Source of the DNA: an uncultured archaeon
GTDB taxonomy: Archaea; Iainarchaeota; Iainarchaeia; Iainarchaeales; 0-14-0-20-30-16
Reading direction: 5' to 3'
DNA length: 9,930 nucleotides
NCBI GenBank assembly: GCA_964595665.1
Contig: CAZQQS010000017.1
Span: 3,230-13,159 of the forward strand
A program made the position numbers and the translations under genes. Numbering within the stretch: position 1 is the first letter of the stretch; the number at the start of each line of letters is the position of its first letter. The notes beneath the pieces were generated by a model. The model saw nothing but the letters and a program-made list of their open reading frames with translations. It had not been told where the DNA came from and did no database searches. Positions 1 to 9,930 of this stretch are shown one piece after another.

Positions 1-3000
1 TTGATTTAGCATTACCTAAATTAATTTGTGCAGAATAATATTTGTTTTTCAAATCAGAATTTAATGAATTTGAAATAAATTCTTTTGGCTCAACACCACA
101 TTTTACTAAACTAACATCACCAAAAGCTTCAGATCCTTGGCTAGTTAAAACTATTTTCATAGGATCTGTTTTCAAATGTGCTTGTGCTAAATCTACATCT
201 GTAAAATTCACTTCTAAAATATATTCTTTTCTTAAACCATCTAAAAAAGAAACAGAACTTACAGAATTATTAAAACTATCTTTTATTCTTGTAGTATAAC
301 CCATATTAGGCCCTGAAACAGTTAATTCTCCCGAACCTAATTTAACACCATCAACAACAAAAGTACATTCTTGTTTTCCCAAACCAAAATAAATTGGACC
401 ACATTTAGTTACAGAATATTTTCCTGCACTAGTATCTTCTAAATGTGTTGCACTATAAGATCCATCTTCATTAATACAGCCACCTAAAGTGCCATCCCAC
501 ATAGCTTTAATTAATCTTAAAGCATCTTGCTTATCTGACAAATTAGTTAAATTAAATGCATTATTTAAAACAACATTTACAATAGAATCTTTTACATTAA
601 CATTTAATTTTGATTGACCTATATTACCAGTTGCAATATGTAAAATATTATAGCTTCTTGAAGAATCAATTCTTTCAGAACCAAAAATAGATTTTGAAAC
701 TTCTTTTGCAAAATCTTTAATTCCAGTTTCAGAATCTAAAACAGCATATCTAAAACCATATAATGAATCTGTTTTTTGAACTATATCTTTTGGCAAATAC
801 ATTATAAAATTTTCTTGTTTTTCCTCACATTGTGGAGTACTTTCTTTTTCAATAACATCTACGAATAAATTAATATTATCGCTTTGAGGAATTTGATCTC
901 TAACTAAAAAAGATCCTTTCAAATCTATAACATATTTTCCACAACCTTTTAATTCGGGGTCAACATAAATATTTTGGAAATTATAATTATAAGATGTTAA
1001 ATCTAAATTTGTACTAGATGCTAAAGAAACACCTCTAATTGATTTTATATTTTGCACTATTTTTTCTTTTAAATATTCTAAACTAATATCATCATGCATT
1101 AAATATAATGTAAATTGAGTTGTTTGCACACCAATATATTCAAATCCACAAGTTTGTGATTCAATATTACAACTTGTTAAACCTAAATTCTTACTATATT
1201 TCAATACTTGAGAATTATAATTATCATAAAAACCTTTTAATTTTCCAGATATAAATTCTGTTGCTAATTGACCATCACAATAAGCTTCAGAACAAGAAAC
1301 ACTTTTTGCAATTTTAGGAACAGTTATTTTAACATTTCCTGAACCATCACATTTAGCAATTTCCTTTTGTGTAATTGGATCTTTACCAGCAGTAATTTTT
1401 GATTCACCAATATCAAATTCATAATTAATAGTTAAATTATATTTTGCACCAGTATATTGACCCATAGCTTCAAAAATTATTGGTTTAGTTAAAGACATAA
1501 TTTTAGCAGTATTCAAAACAGATTTTAATTTTACAGTTTGCATCGGAGCCAAAACATTAGATTCAGAAGTAATTTCTAATGAATTACCTTCAATATCTTG
1601 TTTAATAGGAGTATTAATTAAAATTGGTTCTACACATTCATTAATTAAAGTTGCAGAATTATTTTCTAAATTAATTCCTAATTTATTAGTCATAAAAGTA
1701 ATTTTATTTTGTGGAACAGTTAATTTAAAACAATTTTGAGTTGATAAATTTATCAACAAAGGCATTGTTTGACTTACTTCTTGATTATCTATTGCATTAG
1801 TTCCAGTTGCTGTTATAGAATATGCTGATACTGTATTAGAAGTTCTTGAAAATTGTGCGTTTACAAATAATTGCACCATAATTGTTTGACCAGGCAATAT
1901 TTGAGGAACTACATTTGGATTTGAAGCAATATGCACATTATTAGAATAGGAATTCAAATTACGTAAATAATCTCCTGTTGGATCTAAAGAAGTATTTCCT
2001 AAATTACTGCTTAAAGAATATAAACTATCCATACCATACATTCCACCAGCAGTTAATGGAGTATAAGAAATTTTTAAATTCTTTATTGGAGAATTACCAA
2101 TATTTTTTAATGTTAATAATTGAATAGATTGTTGACCAGAAACCATATACATTTGTTGTTGTTGTAAAGCCATTACAAAGGTAGTATCACTATTTACCAT
2201 TTTTATAGATAATGGAATTTCTTTTTTCAAATATCCAACATCAAAAATAACATTTGTTTCCAAATTCAAATTTGCAGTAGTTAATTTCTTAATTGCATTA
2301 ATATTATATTTTATAGATTTTGATTCTCCTTTACCTAAAGACGCACTAGTAGTATTAAAGGTTAATAATGCATCTAAATCTTCTGTACTTCTACTTTCTA
2401 AAATTGCAGAAACATTAGAAAAATTATATTCACAATTATTAGTTAAAACAAATTCACCATTATACTTTTCACTAGGAACATCGTAAACTGTAATTGTTGT
2501 AGCTTTAGGAGTAATATCTAAACAAACACTATCTAAATCTTTATTTGCAGAAAAACTTAAAGCACTTAATGCTCTAACAGTTTCTTTATCATTAATTAAT
2601 CCAGTAATTGCAATATCTTGAGATCCAAAAACTAAATCTTCATTTTCATAACTTACGTTAATATATAATATTGCTGATTGACCAGGCAAAATATTTGTTC
2701 TATTAAATTTATAATCAATAACAAACATTTCTGCATTATCTTTTAATATTTCCACACCCAAATTTATTACAGGCAATTTAGAAATATTTTTTACTTCTAA
2801 CTCATAATCAATTTGAGTCATCCCATTTGGGATTCTAATATCATTTTGTTTATTTACAGATAAAACATTTAATCGAGTTACAATAAACTTGCCAGAAACA
2901 TTAGAATAATTTTTAGCACTAACAGTATAAGTATAATTTCCAGCTGGCAATTCTTTAATAATATACTCACCATTTAATCCATTTCCTAAAGTATTGTCTC

Positions 3001-5830
3001 CTAAAAATAAAACACTAACTAAATTTTCAGAATCATAAACATTTAATTTTGCATTAGTTATTGCTCCAGAAGTACTTGAAACTTTAAATGCAATTGGTTT
3101 TCCTAATTCATAAACAGAACTATTCAAAGTTACTTGCATATTAGATTTTTCTTTAATATTAAATGAAAAATCTCTGTTAATTTGCATTTGATCAATTAAC
3201 ATATTAATTTTTCCAACACCTATAGATTTAGCTTCGAAATATAATCTATATTTTGCAATTTGACCTTTAAATAAATTTAATTGTAAATCTAAATCTGTTT
3301 GTTGTGAATCTTCTGGCAAAAATTCCATTAAATCCGAACTTATATTATTTAATACTAAATTCTCCATAATGTTTTTTGAACTAAACTTTACAGTAGTTGA
3401 CAAGTCATTTATAGAATAAAATTCTAATTCCAAAGCGTATTTTTGATCTAATGATGCTTCAAAATTTTCAATTTTTCCAAACTCATCTACAAACCTATAA
3501 GCATAACACAAATTTGCAATTTCACTACATTCAAAAGTATCTGAAAATACTTGCAAACTCTCAACCTTAGTTAACGCATATAATCTTTCTAATTTATTAG
3601 AACTTATTTCTGTATTTGGATCTGAATGATAAACACCATCATATGAAATTGCTCTAAATTCTAATGGAATTTTTTCAATACTTATTGTAGGATCAATTTT
3701 AATTTTAACATTAAATTCATTTGAACCTTTTGGTGAATCATAGTAAATATTTACCCAATTATTTTTAATTCCAGGTCTTCCAAATACTTGCAAATCTTTT
3801 ACTGTTGACAAAGATTCATTTTTTGAGAAATATAACCCATATTCAGTGCTTGCACCATAAGCTGTTGCACCATATATTCCATAACCATTTGCTAAAGAAT
3901 ATCCTTCACCTAAACGAACGTGTAATTCACCTTTATTTTGTGCTTTAGGCCAAACAACATTAAATTTTAGATTATATGTTTCTCCAGCTTTTACACCATT
4001 TACTTTTTTACCAAAAGCATCATAAATTCCTAAAAAAGAAATTCTTGGATTTGTAGATATGTCTAAAACATTTAATGTAAATTCCATTTTTGGTTCTACC
4101 ATTAAAATCTTAGAATAATATGTTTCTTCAAAAAATACAGATACCTCTACTTCTTTTAAGTCATAAGGATAAAATTCTATTATTCCATCCAAAGTATTTC
4201 CATCATACAATACTTGTGTTTCAGAAGATATTTTTAATTCTGCATTTTTTAAAACTTTTCCATCTAAGCCATACACATATAATTTTGAATTACCTTTATT
4301 TGGTAACATTACTATATCAAAATCATTTTGACCAACAACTAAGTTTTCTTCCATAGTGCCAAATAAATCTTGAGATGTTGCTTCAACATATAATCTTTTA
4401 TTTGCTTCTAAAATAACGCTAAAAAAACCAGCAATAGATGATTTCGAATCTGGTAAAATAATTGGATAATATTCTAAATTATCAACATAAAATAATTGCA
4501 ATGCAGAACTTACAGGAATATCTTTAGAATCAATTGTAAAAATATTTATTACGGCATTATTTTGCATATTAATTGGTTTTAAAATAATTTCTTCTCTTCC
4601 AGAATTTACATTAGTTACTTTTTTTGTAGAAGGATAATAATTATCTTCAGTATATGCTGAAAGATATGCACTTCTTTTAACATCTAACCCAGAAAATTCT
4701 ACTGTTCCCAAAATGCCAGTTCTATTTACATCTAATAATAATCCATTTTCGGAATATAATGCAACTAATACATTTGATAATTCTTTTCCTGCTTCATTTT
4801 TAGCAGTAACAATTAAATTTACTCCACCTGTTAACAAATCTACATCTCTAGACATAGAGTTTTGAATTACAGTAATATTTTGATTTGTTTCTTGTGAATT
4901 AAATGTTATGAAACCTTCTTTTGAAACAACATATCTTACAACTATACCTTTAGGAATATTTACTAATCCTAAACCCGCATTATCAGTATAAATTTCATCA
5001 ATTTTATCGTTTGTTTTTGTATTATATAATTCAATTTTTGCATCGTTTAAACCAATATTTAAAGATTTAACTAAAAAATTTATAGTCCCTGATTCAGTAG
5101 AATTAAATGATTTTCTTTCTATTTCTACATTTTCAATAACCCCATCTCTAGCATATATGGTTTTATCTGTTTCCATATACCCATCTAAAACAACTTTCAA
5201 TTTTAAAGGTGTTGCAATAGGAATATTTAATAAATTTATTTCTCCTTTAGAATTTGTTTCTCCTTCATATAAAATATCTTCACCATTTAATAAAATTATT
5301 TTTGCTCCAGATAAAACAGTTTTTTCAATATTATCTACTAATCTTAAAGACATATTTCCTAATAACTCATCTTTAGAAAAATTTAATTTTAATTCTAAAT
5401 CTTTATCCTCAACAACTATTGTTGCTGGCCCTAAAAAAGTATATCCTGAAATAATTGCAGATACAGCAATTACCGCTCCATTTTTAGTAGTAAAATTATA
5501 TTTCCCAGGTGTAACTACTTCCTCAAATATAGCTTCATCATTAACAGTTAAAGTTAAATCTGCAGAGGGTAATGAATTTCCAGCAGCATCTACTATAGAT
5601 ACATACATGTTAACATTGACTTTTGAAACCATAAAAACTAATAAAACGATTAAAGCAATCAAAATCAATAATAAGATTATATTAAACCAAACAGGTGGAA
5701 TTCCTTTAGATTCTAAAAAATCATTATACTTATCTATAGGAAGTCCCTTCTCAGATAAGAAATCAGAGAATGCATAATATTTATCTTCAAAAAAACCATT
5801 TATTTTTGTAAAAAATTCACCAACACCCAT
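1..5830 (-). CDS. Giant membrane-anchored cell-surface protein, 3'-partial (>=1943 aa visible, stop beyond the left window edge). Contains carboxypeptidase-regulatory-like/PEGA-type beta-sandwich repeats, CARDB/S-layer-like modules and orphan regions.
   Basis: The start is ATG at 5830..5828. AGGTG sits 5 nt upstream, and an in-frame TAA lies at 5840..5842. I checked every plus-strand triplet starting at positions equal to 2 mod 3, from 2 to 5828. None is TTA, CTA or TCA, so the minus-strand frame has 1943 codons and no stop. The translation begins MGVGEFFTKINGFFEDKYYAFSDFLSEKGLPIDKYNDFLESKGIPPVWFNIILLLILIALIVLLVFMVSK, with one hydrophobic helix at aa 46-68. It continues with repeated motifs such as MSLRLVDNIEKTVLSGAKIILLNGEDILYEGETNSKGEINLLNIPIATPLKLKVVLDGYMETDKTI. 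The track omits it because there is no stop in the window. The plus-strand ORFs listed here are antisense shadows of this gene. Confidence 0.85.
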   Translation of the reverse strand, partial: MGVGEFFTKINGFFEDKYYAFSDFLSEKGLPIDKYNDFLESKGIPPVWFNIILLLILIALIVLLVFMVSKVNVNMYVSIVDAAGNSLPSADLTLTVNDEAIFEEVVTPGKYNFTTKNGAVIAVSAIISGYTFLGPATIVVEDKDLELKLNFSKDELLGNMSLRLVDNIEKTVLSGAKIILLNGEDILYEGETNSKGEINLLNIPIATPLKLKVVLDGYMETDKTIYARDGVIENVEIERKSFNSTESGTINFLVKSLNIGLNDAKIELYNTKTNDKIDEIYTDNAGLGLVNIPKGIVVRYVVSKEGFITFNSQETNQNITVIQNSMSRDVDLLTGGVNLIVTAKNEAGKELSNVLVALYSENGLLLDVNRTGILGTVEFSGLDVKRSAYLSAYTEDNYYPSTKKVTNVNSGREEIILKPINMQNNAVINIFTIDSKDIPVSSALQLFYVDNLEYYPIILPDSKSSIAGFFSVILEANKRLYVEATSQDLFGTMEENLVVGQNDFDIVMLPNKGNSKLYVYGLDGKVLKNAELKISSETQVLYDGNTLDGIIEFYPYDLKEVEVSVFFEETYYSKILMVEPKMEFTLNVLDISTNPRISFLGIYDAFGKKVNGVKAGETYNLKFNVVWPKAQNKGELHVRLGEGYSLANGYGIYGATAYGASTEYGLYFSKNESLSTVKDLQVFGRPGIKNNWVNIYYDSPKGSNEFNVKIKIDPTISIEKIPLEFRAISYDGVYHSDPNTEISSNKLERLYALTKVESLQVFSDTFECSEIANLCYAYRFVDEFGKIENFEASLDQKYALELEFYSINDLSTTVKFSSKNIMENLVLNNISSDLMEFLPEDSQQTDLDLQLNLFKGQIAKYRLYFEAKSIGVGKINMLIDQMQINRDFSFNIKEKSNMQVTLNSSVYELGKPIAFKVSSTSGAITNAKLNVYDSENLVSVLFLGDNTLGNGLNGEYIIKELPAGNYTYTVSAKNYSNVSGKFIVTRLNVLSVNKQNDIRIPNGMTQIDYELEVKNISKLPVINLGVEILKDNAEMFVIDYKFNRTNILPGQSAILYINVSYENEDLVFGSQDIAITGLINDKETVRALSALSFSANKDLDSVCLDITPKATTITVYDVPSEKYNGEFVLTNNCEYNFSNVSAILESRSTEDLDALLTFNTTSASLGKGESKSIKYNINAIKKLTTANLNLETNVIFDVGYLKKEIPLSIKMVNSDTTFVMALQQQQMYMVSGQQSIQLLTLKNIGNSPIKNLKISYTPLTAGGMYGMDSLYSLSSNLGNTSLDPTGDYLRNLNSYSNNVHIASNPNVVPQILPGQTIMVQLFVNAQFSRTSNTVSAYSITATGTNAIDNQEVSQTMPLLINLSTQNCFKLTVPQNKITFMTNKLGINLENNSATLINECVEPILINTPIKQDIEGNSLEITSESNVLAPMQTVKLKSVLNTAKIMSLTKPIIFEAMGQYTGAKYNLTINYEFDIGESKITAGKDPITQKEIAKCDGSGNVKITVPKIAKSVSCSEAYCDGQLATEFISGKLKGFYDNYNSQVLKYSKNLGLTSCNIESQTCGFEYIGVQTTQFTLYLMHDDISLEYLKEKIVQNIKSIRGVSLASSTNLDLTSYNYNFQNIYVDPELKGCGKYVIDLKGSFLVRDQIPQSDNINLFVDVIEKESTPQCEEKQENFIMYLPKDIVQKTDSLYGFRYAVLDSETGIKDFAKEVSKSIFGSERIDSSRSYNILHIATGNIGQSKLNVNVKDSIVNVVLNNAFNLTNLSDKQDALRLIKAMWDGTLGGCINEDGSYSATHLEDTSAGKYSVTKCGPIYFGLGKQECTFVVDGVKLGSGELTVSGPNMGYTTRIKDSFNNSVSSVSFLDGLRKEYILEVNFTDVDLAQAHLKTDPMKIVLTSQGSEAFGDVSLVKCGVEPKEFISNSLNSDLKNKYYSAQINLGNAKS
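1511..2833 (-). other. Four CARDB / archaeal S-layer-domain-like modules within the giant protein (aa ~1000-1440).
   Basis: The modules share the pattern x-L/V-x-V/L-x-N-x-S/G-x-x-P-I/V-x-N-L ... I-L-P-G-Q-S/T-x-x-hydrophobic-x-hydrophobic. One example is DYELEVKNISKLPVINLGVEILK...NILPGQSAILYINVSY. Another is IQLLTLKNIGNSPIKNLKISYTP...QILPGQTIMVQLFVNA. The LPGQ codons are an identical 12-mer, ttgaccaggcaa, at 2678..2689 and 1886..1897. Two weaker modules are bracketed by Cys pairs (C1103/C1133 and C1367/C1399). Confidence 0.4.
4091..5608 (-). repeat. Six tandem, highly diverged protein-level repeats of about 70-90 aa (aa ~75-580 of the giant protein). They resemble the carboxypeptidase regulatory-like / PEGA beta-sandwich fold.
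   Basis: The same pattern recurs six times: hydrophobic-x-hydrophobic-x-D/K, then A/G-x-I/V-x-L, then T/N-x-x-G-x-hydrophobic-x-hydrophobic, then Y-x-V/L-x-V/A-x-x-G/E-Y/F. Examples are VSIVDAAGNSLPSADLTLTVN...GKYNF, INFLVKSLNIGLNDAKIELYN...TDNAGLGLVNIPKGIVVRYVVSKEGF, VNLIVTAKNEAGKELSNVLVALYS...GILGTVEFSGL...YLSAYTEDNY, and KLYVYGLDGKVLKNAELKISS...TLDGIIEFYPY. A seventh copy lies at aa ~897-985 (nt 2876..3142). No nucleotide-level repeat is visible. The family assignment is by eye, without an HMM. Confidence 0.55.
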
Positions 5831-5835
5831 AATAA

Positions 5836-5840
5836 CACCT
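5836..5840 (-). promoter_or_regulatory. Shine-Dalgarno-like site (AGGTG) for the giant ORF.
   Basis: The minus strand reads AAGGTGTTATTATG. AGGTG is complementary to the conserved 16S 3' end and lies 5 nt from the ATG. Confidence 0.5.
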
Positions 5841-5876: not shown

Positions 5877-7310
5877 CTAAAGCATAGGCGATATTAACCT
5901 TGCTAAAGATTCTAGTAGCCTTTCAAATTTACTTTTCTTCTTTAAGTTTTGTATATTTAACTCTACTGAATTCAATAAATCCTTATTAAAAATATCTACC
6001 AATTCATTAGTTTTATTAACGTCCAAAACAAAAGAACTTGCTTCAAAATCCAAATTTAAACTTCTTGAATTCAAATTTGCTGAACCAATAGAACACAAAT
6101 TATCAGAAATTAATAATTTATTATGTAAAAAACCTTTATCATAATAATAAATCTTTATCCCAACATCCAATAACTCATATAAAAAGGTTTTTGATGCTAA
6201 ATTAACAATATTTACATCTGATTTCAAAGGCAGAATTATTTTTACATCTACTCCTTTTAATGCAGCATTTTTTAAAGCAAATAATAATGTTTCATCCGGA
6301 ATAAAATAAGGTGTTTGAATATATAATCGTTTTTCAGCAGAAGTAATTAATGAAAATAAAATAAATTTTAAATTAGTTAATTTGTTATCTGGACCTGAAG
6401 GTGCAATAAATAAACTTGTATTTCCCGAATAATAAAATTTAGGAAACAAATCAAAAGAATCTATTTCTTTCTTTTTTACATAAACCCAATCTTTTAAAAA
6501 AATAGTTTGTAATGAATATACTGCTGGACCAATAATTTTTAATTGCATATCTCTCCAATTACCTAAAGAATTTCCTTTCAAATAATTCTCTCCAATATTT
6601 ATGCCTCCAATAAATCCAACCCTACCATCAATAATTGCTATTTTTCTATGATTCCTATGATTTATTTTACTTCTTAAAATAGAGTAATATACTGGATTAA
6701 ATACTGCATAATCAATATTATTTGTTTTACATATCTTTTTGAAATGTTTTTCAAATTTATTTGATCCTAAACCATCAATCAATATCCTTACTTTAACATT
6801 TTGTTTGGTTTTTTTAATTAACAAATTAAATAACTCTTTCGATAAGGAATCGTTTTCAAAAATATAGTATTCTAAATGAATATGCTTTTTTGCACTCTTT
6901 ATATTTTCAAATAATTCTGGAAAAAATTCTTTGCCATTGTTTAAAAATTTAATATCGTTATTATTGGAAAAAGGCATATTTGTTGAGTTTAATGCCAAAT
7001 AAATCAAATTTTTAGTTGCAACTAAATCTTTAGGATAATGTTTTGTTAATAAGATATTTTTTTGCATTGAAACTACTTTTTTTATAGCTTTATTATATTT
7101 CTTTCTTTTTAATTTCCAATCATAAAATTTTCTCTTTAAACTTTCTCCTAAAAACAAATATGCTATAATACCAATTCCTGGTAAAAGTATAATTACTAAA
7201 AGCCAAGCAATTGTTTTATATGGATCTCTATTCTCCAGAATTAAAACCAGAATTAAATTAAGAATGTATAACACGAATAAAATTAATAAAACATATAATA
7301 GCCAAGGCAT
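5877..7310 (-). CDS. cls: Cardiolipin synthase (phospholipase D superfamily, two HKD motifs, N-terminal membrane anchor).
   Basis: The ORF is 477 aa and ends in TAG at 5877..5879. HKD motif 1 is HRKIAIIDGRVGFIGGINIGENY (H221/K223/D228, nt 6627..6650). HKD motif 2 is HNKLLISDNLCSIGSANLNSRS (H396/K398/D403, nt 6102..6125). There are two N-terminal hydrophobic helices, with the Cls-typical ENRDPYKTIAWLLVIILLPGIGIIAYLFLG. An AGGA lies 8 nt upstream of the ATG (7319..7322). Confidence 0.9.
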   Translation of the reverse strand: MPWLLYVLLILFVLYILNLILVLILENRDPYKTIAWLLVIILLPGIGIIAYLFLGESLKRKFYDWKLKRKKYNKAIKKVVSMQKNILLTKHYPKDLVATKNLIYLALNSTNMPFSNNNDIKFLNNGKEFFPELFENIKSAKKHIHLEYYIFENDSLSKELFNLLIKKTKQNVKVRILIDGLGSNKFEKHFKKICKTNNIDYAVFNPVYYSILRSKINHRNHRKIAIIDGRVGFIGGINIGENYLKGNSLGNWRDMQLKIIGPAVYSLQTIFLKDWVYVKKKEIDSFDLFPKFYYSGNTSLFIAPSGPDNKLTNLKFILFSLITSAEKRLYIQTPYFIPDETLLFALKNAALKGVDVKIILPLKSDVNIVNLASKTFLYELLDVGIKIYYYDKGFLHNKLLISDNLCSIGSANLNSRSLNLDFEASSFVLDVNKTNELVDIFNKDLLNSVELNIQNLKKKSKFERLLESLARLISPML

Positions 7311-7344: not shown

Positions 7345-7366
7345 GTATATATACTATATTTATAAA
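7345..7366. promoter_or_regulatory. Candidate bidirectional promoter core between divergent cls and tRNA-Gln.
   Basis: A perfect 10-bp palindrome, GTATATATAC (7345..7354), lies about 26 nt from the cls SD region. TTTATAAA (7359..7366) is centred about 38 nt upstream of the mature tRNA 5' end. That spacing fits an archaeal TATA box at about -26 plus a leader of about 12 nt. This is based on sequence pattern only. Confidence 0.3.
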
Positions 7367-7400: not shown

Positions 7401-7473
7401 AGCCCCATGGTGTAGTGGTCTATCATCCGAGGCTTTGGACCTCGGGACCTGGGTCCGAATCCCAGTGGGGCTA
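7401..7473 (+). tRNA. tRNA-Gln (anticodon UUG), 73 nt, no encoded CCA.
   Basis: I folded the cloverleaf by hand. The acceptor stem is AGCCCCA (7401-7407) paired with TGGGGCT (7466-7472), with discriminator A7473. U8 is present. The D arm is GTGT/TCAT with loop AGTGGTCTA containing GG. The anticodon stem is CGAGG (7428-7432) paired with CCTCG (7440-7444). The anticodon loop is C-T-TTG-G-A, giving anticodon TTG at 7435..7437, U33 and G37. The T stem is CTGGG (7449-7453) paired with CCCAG (7461-7465), with loop TCCGAAT. The tRNA is a GC-rich island in AT-rich DNA. The A1:U72 pair and the GGUGUAGUGG D region resemble archaeal and eukaryal tRNA-Gln. Confidence 0.9.
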
Positions 7474-7484
7474 TTTTTTATTTT
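7474..7484 (+). terminator. Oligo-T tract (TTTTTTATTTT) immediately 3' of the tRNA. This may be an archaeal-type termination or processing signal.
   Basis: T6-A-T4 starts one base after the discriminator, and no hairpin is present. Because the RSH ATG follows only 9 nt later, termination here must be leaky or the tract may have another role. Confidence 0.3.
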
Positions 7485-7493
7485 CGTGAGAAT

Positions 7494-9215
7494 ATGAATT
7501 TAGAAGAATTGAAAATTCAATTAAATTATATTAATTCTGAATTAATCAATACTGCTTTAGAAATTTATGAACGAAACTTAAGATTAGGTTTTCCAGAATC
7601 TATTTGTATTTTAAGCCTATTTTTACCATATATTGAAAATAATGACAATAATAAAGAATTAAATTCATTAATAACTAAAAATATAACTAATGCTAATGAC
7701 AAAATCAAAGATTTAAAAATAATTTCTGAAATAGAAAACTTATTAGATCCAATAATAAAAGAAAAATTCTTAAAAAATGATTCAAAAATATTTGATATAA
7801 TTTTAAATAAAATAACTGATGTTGATTTAGCGTTAGCTTTAATGTCTGAAAAAATAACTTTAATTAATAAAAAAATATTTTTTCCAGATAAAAAAACTTT
7901 TATGACTTATATTGAAAAAGTATATGTTCCATTATCGCATGTTTTTGGAATTTATAGTTATACTACTTTATTTGATGATTTTATAATTACAAATAAATAT
8001 CCTAAAGAATACAAAGCTGTTTTAGAATTAACAAAAGAAAATTTAACGCGAAGTAAAGATGAAATAGAATATGTTATTTCAAAATTAAACAAATTTAGAA
8101 AATCTCAAAATGAAATTATTAAAGGAAGATTAAAAAGTCCAACAAGCGTTTTTAAAAAAATTTATGATAAAAAACAAAAACCTAATGAAATTATGGACTA
8201 TGTGGCTATAAGAATTATAACTAATACAATATCAGACTGTTATTCTTGGTTAGGACATATTTATTCTTTATGGGAACCAGAATTAGCTAGATTTAAAGAT
8301 TATATAGAACACCCAAAGCCTAATGGATACAAATCTTTACACATAGTTATTATTACAAAATTTGGCCCTATTGAAATACAAATCAGAACTTTTTCTATGG
8401 ATAGATTTGCAGAATTGGGTTTTGCTGCACATTGGCAATATAAAACAAAAAGTGAAAATAAGACATTATTAAAAATAAAAACATCAATAAATACTCAAGC
8501 ACCATATTTTGGAAATGGAAATATTTATGTGTATACTCCAAAAAAAGACATAATTTTATTAGAAAAGGGATCTTCAATTATAGATTTTGCATATGCTATT
8601 CACACATCTATAGGGAGTAAAATATCTTATGCCAAAGTAAATGGAGTTATTGTACCTATCGATACAAAAGTAAAAGATAAGGATTTAATTGAGATATTTA
8701 CAGATGAAAATAAAAAACCAAGTAAAAAATGGTTGGAATTTGTTATAACAAATAAAGCAAGAGATAAAATTTGCCAAATATTAAATATAAAACACATAGA
8801 TAAAAAAATAAAAGATATAAATCCAAAATTAAAAGTTTTAGAAAAAATATCTGTTGGAAAATGTTGTAATCCTTTTGCCAATGAAGAAATAGGAATTTAT
8901 AAAACAACAAAAAGAAAATTAATTTTGCACAATATAGCTTGTTTAGAAAAAAATAATTTAAATTATTCTTATGCTGGAGATTTATTAAAAATGCAATTCT
9001 TAACTTCTAAAACAATAAAAATAATATTTAATCAAAATCCAAAAAATATTTTAGAAATGTTAAAATTAAAAATAAAACTTCCTTCCGAATATTTTATAGA
9101 TTTTGAAAAAAAAGAAGCAATTCTTAATTATGATTTTAATACTTCTGAAGATTTTGAAAATCTTAAGAAAGAATTGCTAAATAATGAACATGTTGAAAAT
9201 GTTGAATTGATTTAG
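7494..9215 (+). CDS. relA: Long RelA/SpoT homologue (RSH). It is a likely (p)ppGpp synthetase with a degenerate, inactive hydrolase-like N-terminus followed by TGS, Cys-motif (ZFD/CC) and ACT/RRM-like regions.
   Basis: The ORF is 573 aa and ends in TAG at 9213..9215. The synthetase signature spans aa 205-317: GRLKSPTSVFKKIYDKK, DYVAIRII, RFKDYIEHPKPNGYKSLH, EIQIRT and AAHWQYK. The TGS region is aa 343-404: IYVYTPKKDIILLEKGSSIIDFAYAIHTSIGSKISYAKVNGVIVP. The Cys motif is aa 455-485: KCCNPFANEEIGIYKTTKRKLILHNIAC. The tail at aa ~505-573 is ACT-like. The N-terminal ~185 aa occupy the HD-domain position, and YVPLSHVFGIY matches the conserved YAPLAHRLG helix. No His occurs before residue 149, so the H...HD metal ligands are absent. 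Confidence 0.88.
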   Translation: MNLEELKIQLNYINSELINTALEIYERNLRLGFPESICILSLFLPYIENNDNNKELNSLITKNITNANDKIKDLKIISEIENLLDPIIKEKFLKNDSKIFDIILNKITDVDLALALMSEKITLINKKIFFPDKKTFMTYIEKVYVPLSHVFGIYSYTTLFDDFIITNKYPKEYKAVLELTKENLTRSKDEIEYVISKLNKFRKSQNEIIKGRLKSPTSVFKKIYDKKQKPNEIMDYVAIRIITNTISDCYSWLGHIYSLWEPELARFKDYIEHPKPNGYKSLHIVIITKFGPIEIQIRTFSMDRFAELGFAAHWQYKTKSENKTLLKIKTSINTQAPYFGNGNIYVYTPKKDIILLEKGSSIIDFAYAIHTSIGSKISYAKVNGVIVPIDTKVKDKDLIEIFTDENKKPSKKWLEFVITNKARDKICQILNIKHIDKKIKDINPKLKVLEKISVGKCCNPFANEEIGIYKTTKRKLILHNIACLEKNNLNYSYAGDLLKMQFLTSKTIKIIFNQNPKNILEMLKLKIKLPSEYFIDFEKKEAILNYDFNTSEDFENLKKELLNNEHVENVELI

Positions 9216-9376: not shown

Positions 9377-9930
9377 CTAATAACTTTTTGCAAAGTAAGT
9401 TAACTTTGCTTTCTTATTACACCAGAAACATTTTTTATCATTTTTTTCTGCAAATGGAATAACTCTTGAACCTAAAGAAGTTGCATCTTTAATTTCTTCT
9501 TCACATTCTTTATTACCACAAAATGGAGCTAAAATATATCTATTATTTCTTGCATTTAAAATAAATTCTTCTTTTTTATTTACTTTTGTTATTAAGTTAT
9601 CTTGCACTTCTTTTGCTTTATTAAATAATGCTTTTGGCATTTCTTTTAATTGTTTTTTTATTTCATTTTGCAAATCAGTTAATGCAACAAAATTCTTTTG
9701 TAACAAATCTCTTCTTACTAAAACAACTTGTTTATTTTCTACATCTCTCGGACCAATTTCAATTCTTAATGGAATTCCTTTAAGCTCCCATTCTGCGAAT
9801 TTAGCACCAGGAGTATAATTTTCTCTATCATCTAAAAAAGCACCAAATTTTTTCAAAGACTTTTCTAATTTTTTAGCTTCTTGCAAAACTAATTCTTCTT
9901 TTCCTTTAATTAAAATTGGAACTATAACAA
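9377..9930 (-). CDS. proS: Prolyl-tRNA synthetase, archaeal/eukaryote-like type. This is the 5'-partial gene: the anticodon-binding domain and the C-terminal zinc-binding domain are visible.
   Basis: The frame is open to the right window edge. The track's M is actually a TTG at 9886, and upstream codons read VIVPILIKGKEELV. The sequence LDDRENYTPGAKFAEWELKGIPLRIEIGPRDVENKQVVLVRRD is the class IIa anticodon-binding-domain signature. The C-terminus has CGNKEC...CFWC, four Cys in a zinc-site pattern. It ends in ...FAKSY, the terminal Tyr typical of this ProRS type. The stop is TAG at 9377..9379. Confidence 0.9.
   Translation of the reverse strand, partial: VIVPILIKGKEELVLQEAKKLEKSLKKFGAFLDDRENYTPGAKFAEWELKGIPLRIEIGPRDVENKQVVLVRRDLLQKNFVALTDLQNEIKKQLKEMPKALFNKAKEVQDNLITKVNKKEEFILNARNNRYILAPFCGNKECEEEIKDATSLGSRVIPFAEKNDKKCFWCNKKAKLTYFAKSY

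Follow-up and report, generated by a model that had tools for sequence, protein, structure and literature searches.

A compact, predicted synthetase-only long RelA/SpoT homologue linked to tRNA-Gln in DPANN archaea

A gene for a long RelA/SpoT homologue (RSH) lies in a stretch of DNA from an uncultured archaeon (contig CAZQQS010000017.1 of assembly GCA_964595665.1). The whole stretch analysed, hereafter the window, is 9.9 kb long, has a GC content of ~25% and holds five features. The RSH gene (7494..9215, plus strand) is intact from its ATG start to its TAG stop and encodes 573 aa. Immediately upstream lies a gene for tRNA-Gln(UUG) (7401..7473, plus strand), detected by ARAGORN and by the Rfam tRNA model with 55.6 bits. 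The other features are a giant open reading frame (ORF), a cardiolipin synthase gene and the end of a gene for prolyl-tRNA synthetase (ProRS).

The protein has the domain order pseudo-HD, synthetase, TGS, short helical linker, zinc finger and RRM, all encoded on the plus strand. The N-terminal pseudo-hydrolase, a degenerate HD domain (aa 1-199, 7494..8090), was recognised by alignment and hhalign, and is all-helical in an AlphaFold2 (AF2) model. It is followed by the (p)ppGpp synthetase domain SYNTH (aa 200-333, 8091..8492; Pfam RelA_SpoT at aa 211-320, E=1.6e-35) and by TGS (aa 343-405, 8520..8708; Pfam TGS at aa 344-403, E=6.6e-18). A remnant of the alpha-helical (AH) linker (aa 406-451, 8709..8846), delimited by the Trp-to-CC spacing and the AF2 model, leads to the zinc-finger or ribosome-intersubunit (Cys-motif) domain (aa 452-503, 8847..9002; ligands C457, C458, H479 and C483). 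An RRM/ACT-like domain (aa 504-573, 9003..9212; AF2, hhalign) closes the protein.

Pfam HD_4, RelA_RIS and ACT_4 had no match in the window RSH or in any of the 19 members of its clade that were scanned, and the window RSH did not match PF19296 in its AH linker. The TIGR00691 spoT_relA model covered model positions 84-462 only and gave 260.4 bits, below its curated cut-off of 499.2, so that standard annotation pipelines would under-call this protein. In profile comparisons with hhalign, the C-terminal 170 residues of the clade aligned end to end with bacterial Rel C-termini (99.1% probability, E=5e-19). The N-terminal 199 residues aligned with bacterial HD domains (96% probability, E=4.8e-9) and with the HD domains of a second DPANN group, group C (97.6% probability). 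The HD, Cys-motif and ACT/RRM domains are present in divergent form, despite the silence of Pfam.

The AF2 model, built on 80 homologues, reached a predicted local distance difference test (pLDDT) of 88.8 and a predicted TM score (pTM) of 0.70. It consists of helices over residues ~1-199, an alpha/beta region at 208-333, a beta-grasp at 343-403, a small beta-rich domain at 452-503 and a beta-alpha-beta-beta-alpha-beta fold at 505-572 (pLDDT ~90), as in RRM/ACT domains. In the linker, two helices (411-430 and 444-450) are modelled; pLDDT falls below 50 at 437-447, and aa 431-451 form a flexible stretch of ~20 residues. The best fold matches in the PDB were RelA on the 70S ribosome (5IQR; 5IQR_8 with E=3.5e-26), Bacillus subtilis Rel (6YXA), RelA 5KPV and full-length SpoT (7QPR, TM 0.5), and the N-terminus matched Rel N-terminal-domain structures with TMt values of 0.6-0.76. 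By sequence, the best PDB match in phmmer was 6YXA (E=6e-54). Pfam, hhalign, phmmer and AF2 agree with a first-pass annotation of this DNA, which had recognised a long RSH with TGS, Cys-motif and ACT-like regions. That identity stands; the catalytically dead hydrolase domain had gone unmentioned.

Catalytic residues were read off an alignment with a streptococcal Rel that shares the RelSeq numbering. All eight hydrolase residues (R44, H53, H77, D78, E81, D82, D144 and N148) are replaced or deleted in the window RSH and throughout clade A, the group of relatives to which it belongs; the same eight are invariant in the bacterial Rel of the alignment. A 24-aa deletion spans the H53 region, and the hydrolase motifs LLHDVVED and LADRLHN have become SLFLPYIEN and LMSEKITLIN, respectively. 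The SYNTH motifs are intact, namely RxKxxxSxxxK (R212, K214, S218, K222), D235, R240, RFKD at 266-269, the G-loop KPNGYKSLH (Y279, H283), EIQIRT (E294, Q296, R298) and AAHWQYK, and the motif residues are invariant in the 80-sequence alignment. All but one of the 31 SYNTH positions checked (30/31) are kept or conservatively replaced. The exception is RelSeq H332, here D303, and an Asp at this position is also present in three of 42 bacterial Rel sequences.

Judged from these residues, the hydrolase site of the window RSH is destroyed and its synthetase site intact. On paper, the protein would be a synthetase-only, RelA-like enzyme ([hS] in the Atkinson nomenclature), and it should not be classed as a bifunctional Rel/SpoT ([HS]), because all eight hydrolase residues are gone. 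Its charge motif (aa 266-269, window 8289-8300) reads RFKD, which is the Rel-type RxKD, whereas E. coli RelA has EFDD. Since the protein falls into a separate DPANN clade and carries RFKD rather than EFDD, the hydrolase was lost independently of proteobacterial RelA. Among the relatives, the charge motif is R/K-x-K-D in clades A and B, versus a RelA-like E/H-x-D/E-D in group C.

The shortening of the protein was located by comparing segment lengths with those of 42 bacterial Rel sequences. Overall, 573 aa compare with 710-762 aa for the bacterial Rel in the alignment, a difference of 137-189 aa, which is close to the 150-200 aa estimated in the first-pass annotation. From the N-terminus to the GRxK motif, the window's clade has 209-219 residues (bacterial Rel ~229-261), in the SYNTH-TGS linker 30 (46-55), from the conserved Trp after TGS to the CC motif 43 (121-144), and in the tail after the last zinc ligand 88-92 (101-116). 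The losses thus amount to ~25 residues at the N-terminus, 18 in the SYNTH-TGS linker, ~90 in the AH linker and ~15 in the C-terminal tail. In the alignment, the first conserved helix of the AH linker (PSKKWLEFVITNKARDKICQIL) is retained and is followed by a flexible stretch. The five-helix AH domain that defines long RSHs is not present, and about one third of the linker is left. The helical linker between TGS and the Cys-motif had been described as almost gone, which overstates the loss, as 43 residues persist compared with 121-144.

How RelA reads the ribosome is known from a cryo-EM structure (Arenz et al. 2016, PMC5291266). The CCA end of the deacylated A-site tRNA is gripped by TGS, close to H432, the F409-P411 hairpin and V461-I463, and the acceptor arm of this tRNA is enclosed by the five-helix linker. 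The Cys-motif domain reaches the tip of helix H38 and S19, and ACT makes contacts to H43, L16, A896 of H38 and the tRNA elbow. In the window RSH, H370 aligns with E. coli RelA H432, the residue at the tRNA CCA end (phmmer, and alignment to 5IQR and 6YXA). The TGS hairpin Y347-T348-P349 is kept, and H370, T348 and P349 are invariant. The zinc ligands C457, C458, H479 and C483 align with C612, C613, H634 and C638 of E. coli RelA at identical spacing, and all four are invariant in 80 of 80 sequences. Mean pairwise identity within the clade is 0.64 for SYNTH, 0.58 for the zinc finger and 0.57 for TGS, followed by 0.45 for the linker remnant, 0.41 for the pseudo-HD and 0.31 for the RRM. As the sensor parts are conserved nearly as well as SYNTH, the C-terminal region likely still does a specific job. 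By analogy with RelA, this job would most simply be the reading of uncharged tRNA on the archaeal ribosome.

A further signature lies in the zinc-finger hairpin (aa 471-475, window 8904-8918), which reads TTKRK. The form T(T/S/Q)KRK occurs in all 32 short-linker DPANN RSHs (32/32), whereas bacterial sequences and a further set of relatives, group E, have (R/K)G(R/K/Y/F)G. The change to TxKRK is basic and clade-specific, and it sits in the domain that in RelA contacts rRNA helix 38 and S19.

Four groups of relatives were obtained by database searches. The 22 close relatives (565-580 aa; Pfam RelA_SpoT and TGS only) divide into clade A, which includes the window RSH, and clade B. Group C proteins are 590-627 aa long and still match HD_4, RelA_RIS and ACT_4, and two of them are named Diapherotrites. 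Group E proteins have ~692 aa, and ordinary bacterial Rel aligned at ~37% identity over half of the query. The first-pass annotation had proposed to place the protein in an RSH-family phylogeny. In a rough neighbour-joining tree (560 columns; 80 sequences picked by similarity to the query), clades A and B grouped together with 100% bootstrap, and A, B and C were split from all other sequences with 100%, which places the window RSH in a DPANN-only clade. Two derived characters, the short linker (42-54 residues) and the T(T/S/Q)KRK hairpin, are common to all 32 members of A, B and C. In group C, most hydrolase residues have already been lost apart from H53 and H77, which most members keep, and the decay of the hydrolase therefore seems old in this lineage.

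The window's subclade is rare, with ~5 representatives at 50% identity among 1.84 billion proteins in a search with the N-terminal region. Each of the 19 full-length clade members in alignment A1 has an intact ORF (565-579 aa), at identities to the window RSH down to 38%. The clade alignment has 80 invariant columns, which include every catalytic SYNTH residue and the sensor residues. Two further scans retrieved bacterial Rel. A scan of GTDB representative genomes, a set that does not include the window's own genome, gave bacterial Rel loci only with the window RSH as query, the confirming patterns being generic, and a metagenome scan with the clade alignment, for which two universal TGS motifs were chosen, gave bacterial Rel and no DPANN loci among the matches listed.

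The host is a DPANN archaeon, similar to Iainarchaeota/Diapherotrites. A contig of GCA_030154545.1 (locus L022) matches the window in its succession of giant ORF, cardiolipin synthase, tRNA-Gln, RSH and ProRS, continues with an XPD-type helicase, and has an RSH that is 75% identical to that of the window. The full ProRS of L022 is 85% identical to the window's ProRS fragment, and the named proteins among its best 120 database matches were all DPANN or an unclassified 'archaeon', with none from bacteria. The closest named match (77%) belongs to 'Candidatus Diapherotrites archaeon CG08_land_8_20_14_0_20_30_16', whose NCBI lineage is Archaea; Nanobdellati; Candidatus Iainarchaeota. Other loci with related RSHs carry archaeal markers as well: CDC48 and archaeal ATPases in L023, thermosome and TrmB in L026, RPA, RadA, Trm56 and TFIIE-alpha in L110, and RadA, Hjc, PcrB and DUF2240 in L025, a 522-kb contig named Diapherotrites.

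The composition of the RSH gene matches that of its surroundings. Its GC content at third codon positions (GC3) is 0.10 versus 0.09-0.16 for the window neighbours, and it correlates with them in relative synonymous codon usage (RSCU; 0.79-0.93) and in tetranucleotides (0.88-0.97). The junction between tRNA-Gln and RSH was found in nine loci from independent samples and different assemblers, which rules out a chimeric join. The first-pass annotation had taken the host for an archaeon and named bacterial or candidate phyla radiation (CPR) markers and a discordant composition of the gene as the findings that would speak against this. Both were looked for; neighbours and syntenic contigs are DPANN-archaeal, and codon usage and tetranucleotides are concordant with the flanking genes. 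Assembly GCA_030154545.1 holds, on separate contigs and each beside a tRNA-Gln gene, both a clade-A RSH (P0002, L022) and a clade-B RSH (P0018, L023), the latter 43% identical to the window RSH. Either two DPANN populations are mixed in this assembly, or a single genome encodes both RSHs as paralogues and tRNA-Gln twice.

The neighbouring tRNA-Gln(UUG) has the pair A1-U72 and the discriminator A73 and lacks an encoded CCA; its eight orthologues agree with it in all three respects, and the alignment of the nine orthologous genes contains compensatory stem changes. From A73 to the ATG of the RSH gene there are exactly 20 nt. The distance and the archaeal identity elements had both been noticed in the first-pass annotation, and the A1-U72 pair and A73 bear it out. 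At window position 7455 (tRNA position 55) there is a C in the T-loop (GGGTCCGAATCCC), where all eight orthologues (8/8) have the near-universal T (GTTCGAATC); this C may be genuine or may stem from a sequencing error.

Directly upstream of RSH, a tRNA-Gln(UUG) gene was found at all nine distinct loci (9/9) from clades A and B (window 7401-7494; L022 9905-10001; L114 821-913; L113 654-924; L107 5756-6001; L026 9781-10001; L023 9853-10001; L109 5847-6001; L112 83-244). Clade A loci encode both genes on one strand and separate them by either 17-21 nt or 144-195 nt. Clade B loci have the tRNA gene on the other strand at a distance of 73-88 nt, and there a separate ATATATTTAAAAA box precedes the RSH start codon by ~25-35 nt. 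Beyond the pair, the gene neighbourhood varies between loci. Group C lacks the linkage; one of its loci has a tRNA-Ser gene upstream of RSH and two have triose-phosphate isomerase. The linkage has outlasted an inversion and a divergence of RSH to ~40% identity. A shared promoter region that co-regulates the two genes could explain it, and it could also be what is left of an integration at the tRNA gene. No copy of the tRNA 3' end, as an att-like repeat, was present elsewhere in the window.

In three clade-A loci with long gaps between tRNA and RSH, we observed a conserved hairpin-rich element of ~110 nt (L113 729-850, L107 5832-5950, L026 9857-9985). It has a stem-loop directly 3' of the tRNA, followed by a GTTTTCCATAAA box, after which 9-12 nt repeat the 3' end of the adjoining tRNA and co-vary with that tRNA. 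Rfam had no family for the element in L113, L107 or L026, and its predicted fold, based on three sequences, is weak. It could be a miniature inverted-repeat transposable element, an att remnant or a structured leader.

The signals around the window's tRNA gene suggest how RSH might be expressed. A TATA-like box (TTTATAAA, 7359..7366, plus strand) lies ~35-42 nt upstream of tRNA-Gln. In L022, the 44 nt preceding the tRNA, TTTATAAA included, are almost unchanged, and the corresponding position in L114 is occupied by TTTAAAAA. This box would be an archaeal promoter for the tRNA and, via read-through, for the RSH gene. Directly 3' of the tRNA follows a T-rich tract (TTTTTTATTTT, 7474..7484, plus strand), a putative partial archaeal termination signal and RNase Z trailer; the 20-nt gap reads TTTTTTATTTT and then CGTGAGAAT. 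It contains GTGAG (7486..7490, plus strand; 4-8 nt before the ATG), probably a Shine-Dalgarno-like element, and a GUGA(U)-like element is found 5-9 nt before the start codon in six of six clade-A loci. A scan for sigma-70 promoters stayed at chance level (17 matches versus 18.8 expected); this result and the TATA-like box are further indications of an archaeal host. Because the gap is only 20 nt, there is no room for an archaeal promoter of the RSH gene's own. Most likely, transcripts that start at the tRNA-Gln promoter would run through a leaky oligo-T signal into RSH, and 3' processing of the tRNA would free the RSH mRNA.

Of the known systems compared, one is the bifunctional bacterial Rel (B. 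subtilis 6YXA; RelSeq 1VJ7). With it, the window RSH shares the domain order, the RxKD charge motif, the TGS His, the zinc ligands and the synthetase residues checked, one His-to-Asp change aside. It differs in its archaeal host, in the loss of 8/8 hydrolase residues with the 24-aa deletion, in the cuts to the linker (~90), SYNTH-TGS region (18) and tail (~15), and in having TTKRK for (R/K)GRG. E. coli RelA (5IQR, 5KPV, 5L3P) resembles it in combining a dead HD with a live SYNTH, and 5IQR is the best fold match. However, the window RSH is not its orthologue, as it belongs with the DPANN clade, carries RFKD for EFDD and is ~170 aa shorter; orthology and ExDD, the marks of the proteobacterial RelA subgroup, are both lacking. 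Small alarmone synthetases (RelP, RelQ, YjbM) have the same SYNTH fold and catalytic motifs, with weak matches, but neither an N-terminal pseudo-HD nor a four-part C-terminal regulatory region. The DPANN RelA/SpoT genes reported by Li et al. 2021 (PMC8407392) are represented here by group C proteins of 608-627 aa (e.g. P0027, 'Candidatus Diapherotrites archaeon'), which also have an archaeal host, a short linker of 42-54 residues and TTKRK. In contrast to the window RSH, they are 35-50 aa longer, have an ExDD-like charge motif, match Pfam HD_4, RelA_RIS and ACT_4, keep H53 and H77 in most members and are not linked to tRNA-Gln. Of the two, clades A and B form the more reduced and divergent branch.

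We read the window RSH as a compact long RSH of a DPANN archaeon, derived from a bacterial Rel that an ancestor of several DPANN lineages took up in the distant past, and we put the probability of this reading at roughly 0.7. The enzyme would move pyrophosphate from ATP to GDP or GTP and thereby make (p)ppGpp, its C-terminal region would hold the synthetase off, and alarmone breakdown would fall to another enzyme. Two features common to all the DPANN relatives, the loss of ~90 linker residues and the basic TxKRK hairpin, are candidates for an adjustment to the archaeal ribosome. It is plausible that the C-terminal sensor has adapted to this ribosome, which would fit the invariant sensor residues and the clade-specific changes. 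The ribosomal elements contacted by RelA (H38, uS19, uL16 and H43) are, to our knowledge, universal. Activation of the window RSH by the ribosome, which is suggested by analogy with RelA, has in our estimate somewhat less than an even chance. We are a shade more hesitant about the complete picture, in which the short-linker DPANN RSH clade would be a working stringent factor, with uncharged A-site tRNA triggering (p)ppGpp synthesis, the linker deletion and TxKRK fitting the archaeal ribosome, and expression in the subclade tied to tRNA-Gln.

Several observations weigh against this interpretation. The AH linker, which wraps the tRNA acceptor arm in RelA, is down to about a third, and with a linker of this length the bacterial binding geometry cannot be reproduced exactly. 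The RRM is the least conserved domain (0.31). No alarmone hydrolase partner was present in any flank examined, and an unopposed synthetase would be toxic in bacteria. The tree is a rough one of sequences chosen for their similarity to the query, and the host taxonomy rests on the contigs of close relatives.

The shortened linker also leads to an alternative, in which the protein still makes (p)ppGpp and its C-terminus no longer reads the ribosome, serving only in auto-inhibition, oligomerisation or the binding of a ligand or partner. The reduction from 121-144 to 43 residues in the very part that would wrap the A-site tRNA speaks for it, as do the divergence of the RRM/ACT, the absence of Pfam ACT_4 and RelA_RIS matches, and the compact state of the AF2 model, which is nearer to free SpoT (7QPR, TM 0.5) than to the extended ribosome-bound RelA (root-mean-square deviation 39 A). 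However, the CCA-facing TGS histidine and the Y-T-P hairpin are invariant, and so are the zinc ligands of a zinc finger that is conserved like TGS. The universal nature of the ribosomal partners of RelA named above also speaks against this alternative, and in the model the flexible stretch of ~20 residues at aa 431-451 could bridge TGS and zinc finger. On balance, we regard a loss of ribosome sensing as rather unlikely and as less probable than activation by the ribosome.

Repurposing of SYNTH, as in toxic small alarmone synthetases, towards (p)ppApp or pyrophosphorylation of the tRNA CCA end is far less probable. RSH relatives with such activities exist (10.1101/2021.04.30.441581), CapRel (7ZTB) is among the weak fold matches, the strict linkage to tRNA-Gln would hint at a tRNA-directed activity, and the flanks examined hold no hydrolase partner. 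Yet the G-loop KPNGYKSLH and the Rel-type substrate residues are identical to those of bona fide (p)ppGpp synthetases, the best structures are long Rel, RelA and SpoT, with CapRel at only E=2e-5, and no conserved antitoxin-like partner gene adjoins RSH in the loci examined. On these grounds of substrate residues, fold matches and neighbours, we rejected a toxin of this type. Even less credit is due to the idea that the gene is a decaying, functionless relic of horizontal transfer. The lost hydrolase site, shortening in four places, the divergent RRM and the rarity of the subclade (the ~5 representatives mentioned above) would be expected of a relic; an ORF that is intact in 19/19 full-length members (565-579 aa) at identities down to 38%, 80 invariant columns with catalytic and sensor residues, and a fully ameliorated codon usage would not, and this conservation pattern led us to reject a pseudogene. 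Equally improbable is a bacterial contig (CPR, Mollicutes-like or from another low-GC lineage), or a chimera of a bacterial RSH with archaeal DNA. In its favour, a long RSH is typical of bacteria, TIGR04265 assigns the cardiolipin synthase to the bacterial type with 419 bits, and archaeal-type ProRS is known from some bacteria too. Against this stand the same tRNA-Gln/RSH junction in nine loci of different samples and assemblers, flanks with thermosome, CDC48 and XPD, group C loci with RadA, Hjc, PcrB, TFIIE and Trm56, the exclusively DPANN or unclassified archaeal named matches among the best 120 for ProRS, the archaeal A1-U72 and A73 of tRNA-Gln, and the agreement of RSH with the flanking genes in GC3 and RSCU. 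A bacterial host or chimeric contig was rejected on synteny, archaeal markers, ProRS, tRNA and composition.

The presence of RelA/SpoT genes in DPANN is already known. They were reported from 69% of Diapherotrites, 41.7% of Woesearchaeota, 21.3% of Pacearchaeota and 19% of Nanoarchaeota genomes and were inferred to be acquired from Bacteria (Li et al. 2021, PMC8407392). An archaeal occurrence is hence not new. Nor is it sporadic within DPANN, as the first-pass annotation had described archaeal cases; with 19-69% of genomes in four phyla it is common there. Long RSHs were absent from archaea in the RSH survey of 2011 (PMC3153485), and in the passages of the 2019/2020 update on its 13 long-RSH subfamilies no archaeal subfamily is named. 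In Haloferax and Sulfolobus, no (p)ppGpp was measured, and a 2023 review of archaeal second messengers describes (p)ppGpp as undescribed in archaea and probably unimportant there (PMC10249747). In the literature searched, there was no paper on domain anatomy, hydrolase loss, linker deletion or biochemistry of DPANN RSHs. The compact hydrolase-dead variant, the clade signatures and the tRNA-Gln linkage appear to be undescribed in that literature.

The clade offers a clonable reagent for asking whether archaeal ribosomes can support a bacterial-type stringent response. The places where the interface would have been re-tuned are indicated by the shortened linker, the TxKRK hairpin and the independently lost hydrolase, and the missing hydrolase raises the question of how very small DPANN cells clear the alarmone. 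A working stringent factor on an archaeal ribosome, if true, would be the first ribosome-coupled alarmone system in Archaea. This value is tempered by the published presence in DPANN, and everything beyond the anatomy is inference.

The remaining features of the window are all on the minus strand. The giant ORF (2..5839) encodes >1946 aa and runs off the left end of the window. It has an N-terminal membrane anchor at ~aa 50-75 (start near 5830) and many predicted beta-rich repeats. Its syntenic homologues in L022, L026 and L107 are 2833-2943 aa long, with faint matches to bMG3, CarboxypepD_reg, SLT and GDSL-lipase, and it is probably a DPANN cell-surface protein. The cardiolipin synthase gene (5877..7310) scored 419 bits with TIGR04265, a bacterial equivalog model with a cut-off of 290. 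It adjoins the tRNA-Gln/RSH pair in L022 and L107 too, and its presence in an archaeal genome is probably a further bacterial acquisition. Downstream of RSH, the C-terminal 183 aa of an archaeal/eukaryotic-type ProRS are encoded at 9377..9928 (ProRS-C_1, TIGR00408).

Purine genes adjoin RSH in some relatives. In L022, purA (11725-13221, minus strand) overlaps the RSH stop, while it is absent from the window, and in L111 guaA, purE, purC and purF lie downstream of the RSH gene (10209-13827). Several bacterial purine-nucleotide enzymes are targets of (p)ppGpp; there may be an association with RSH here, a weak one. Finally, the L026 contig, which carries a related RSH, encodes a tRNA-Ile with the anticodon UAU (15441-15514, minus strand). 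Such a tRNA is unusual in archaea, where AUA is normally decoded by a modified CAU anticodon.

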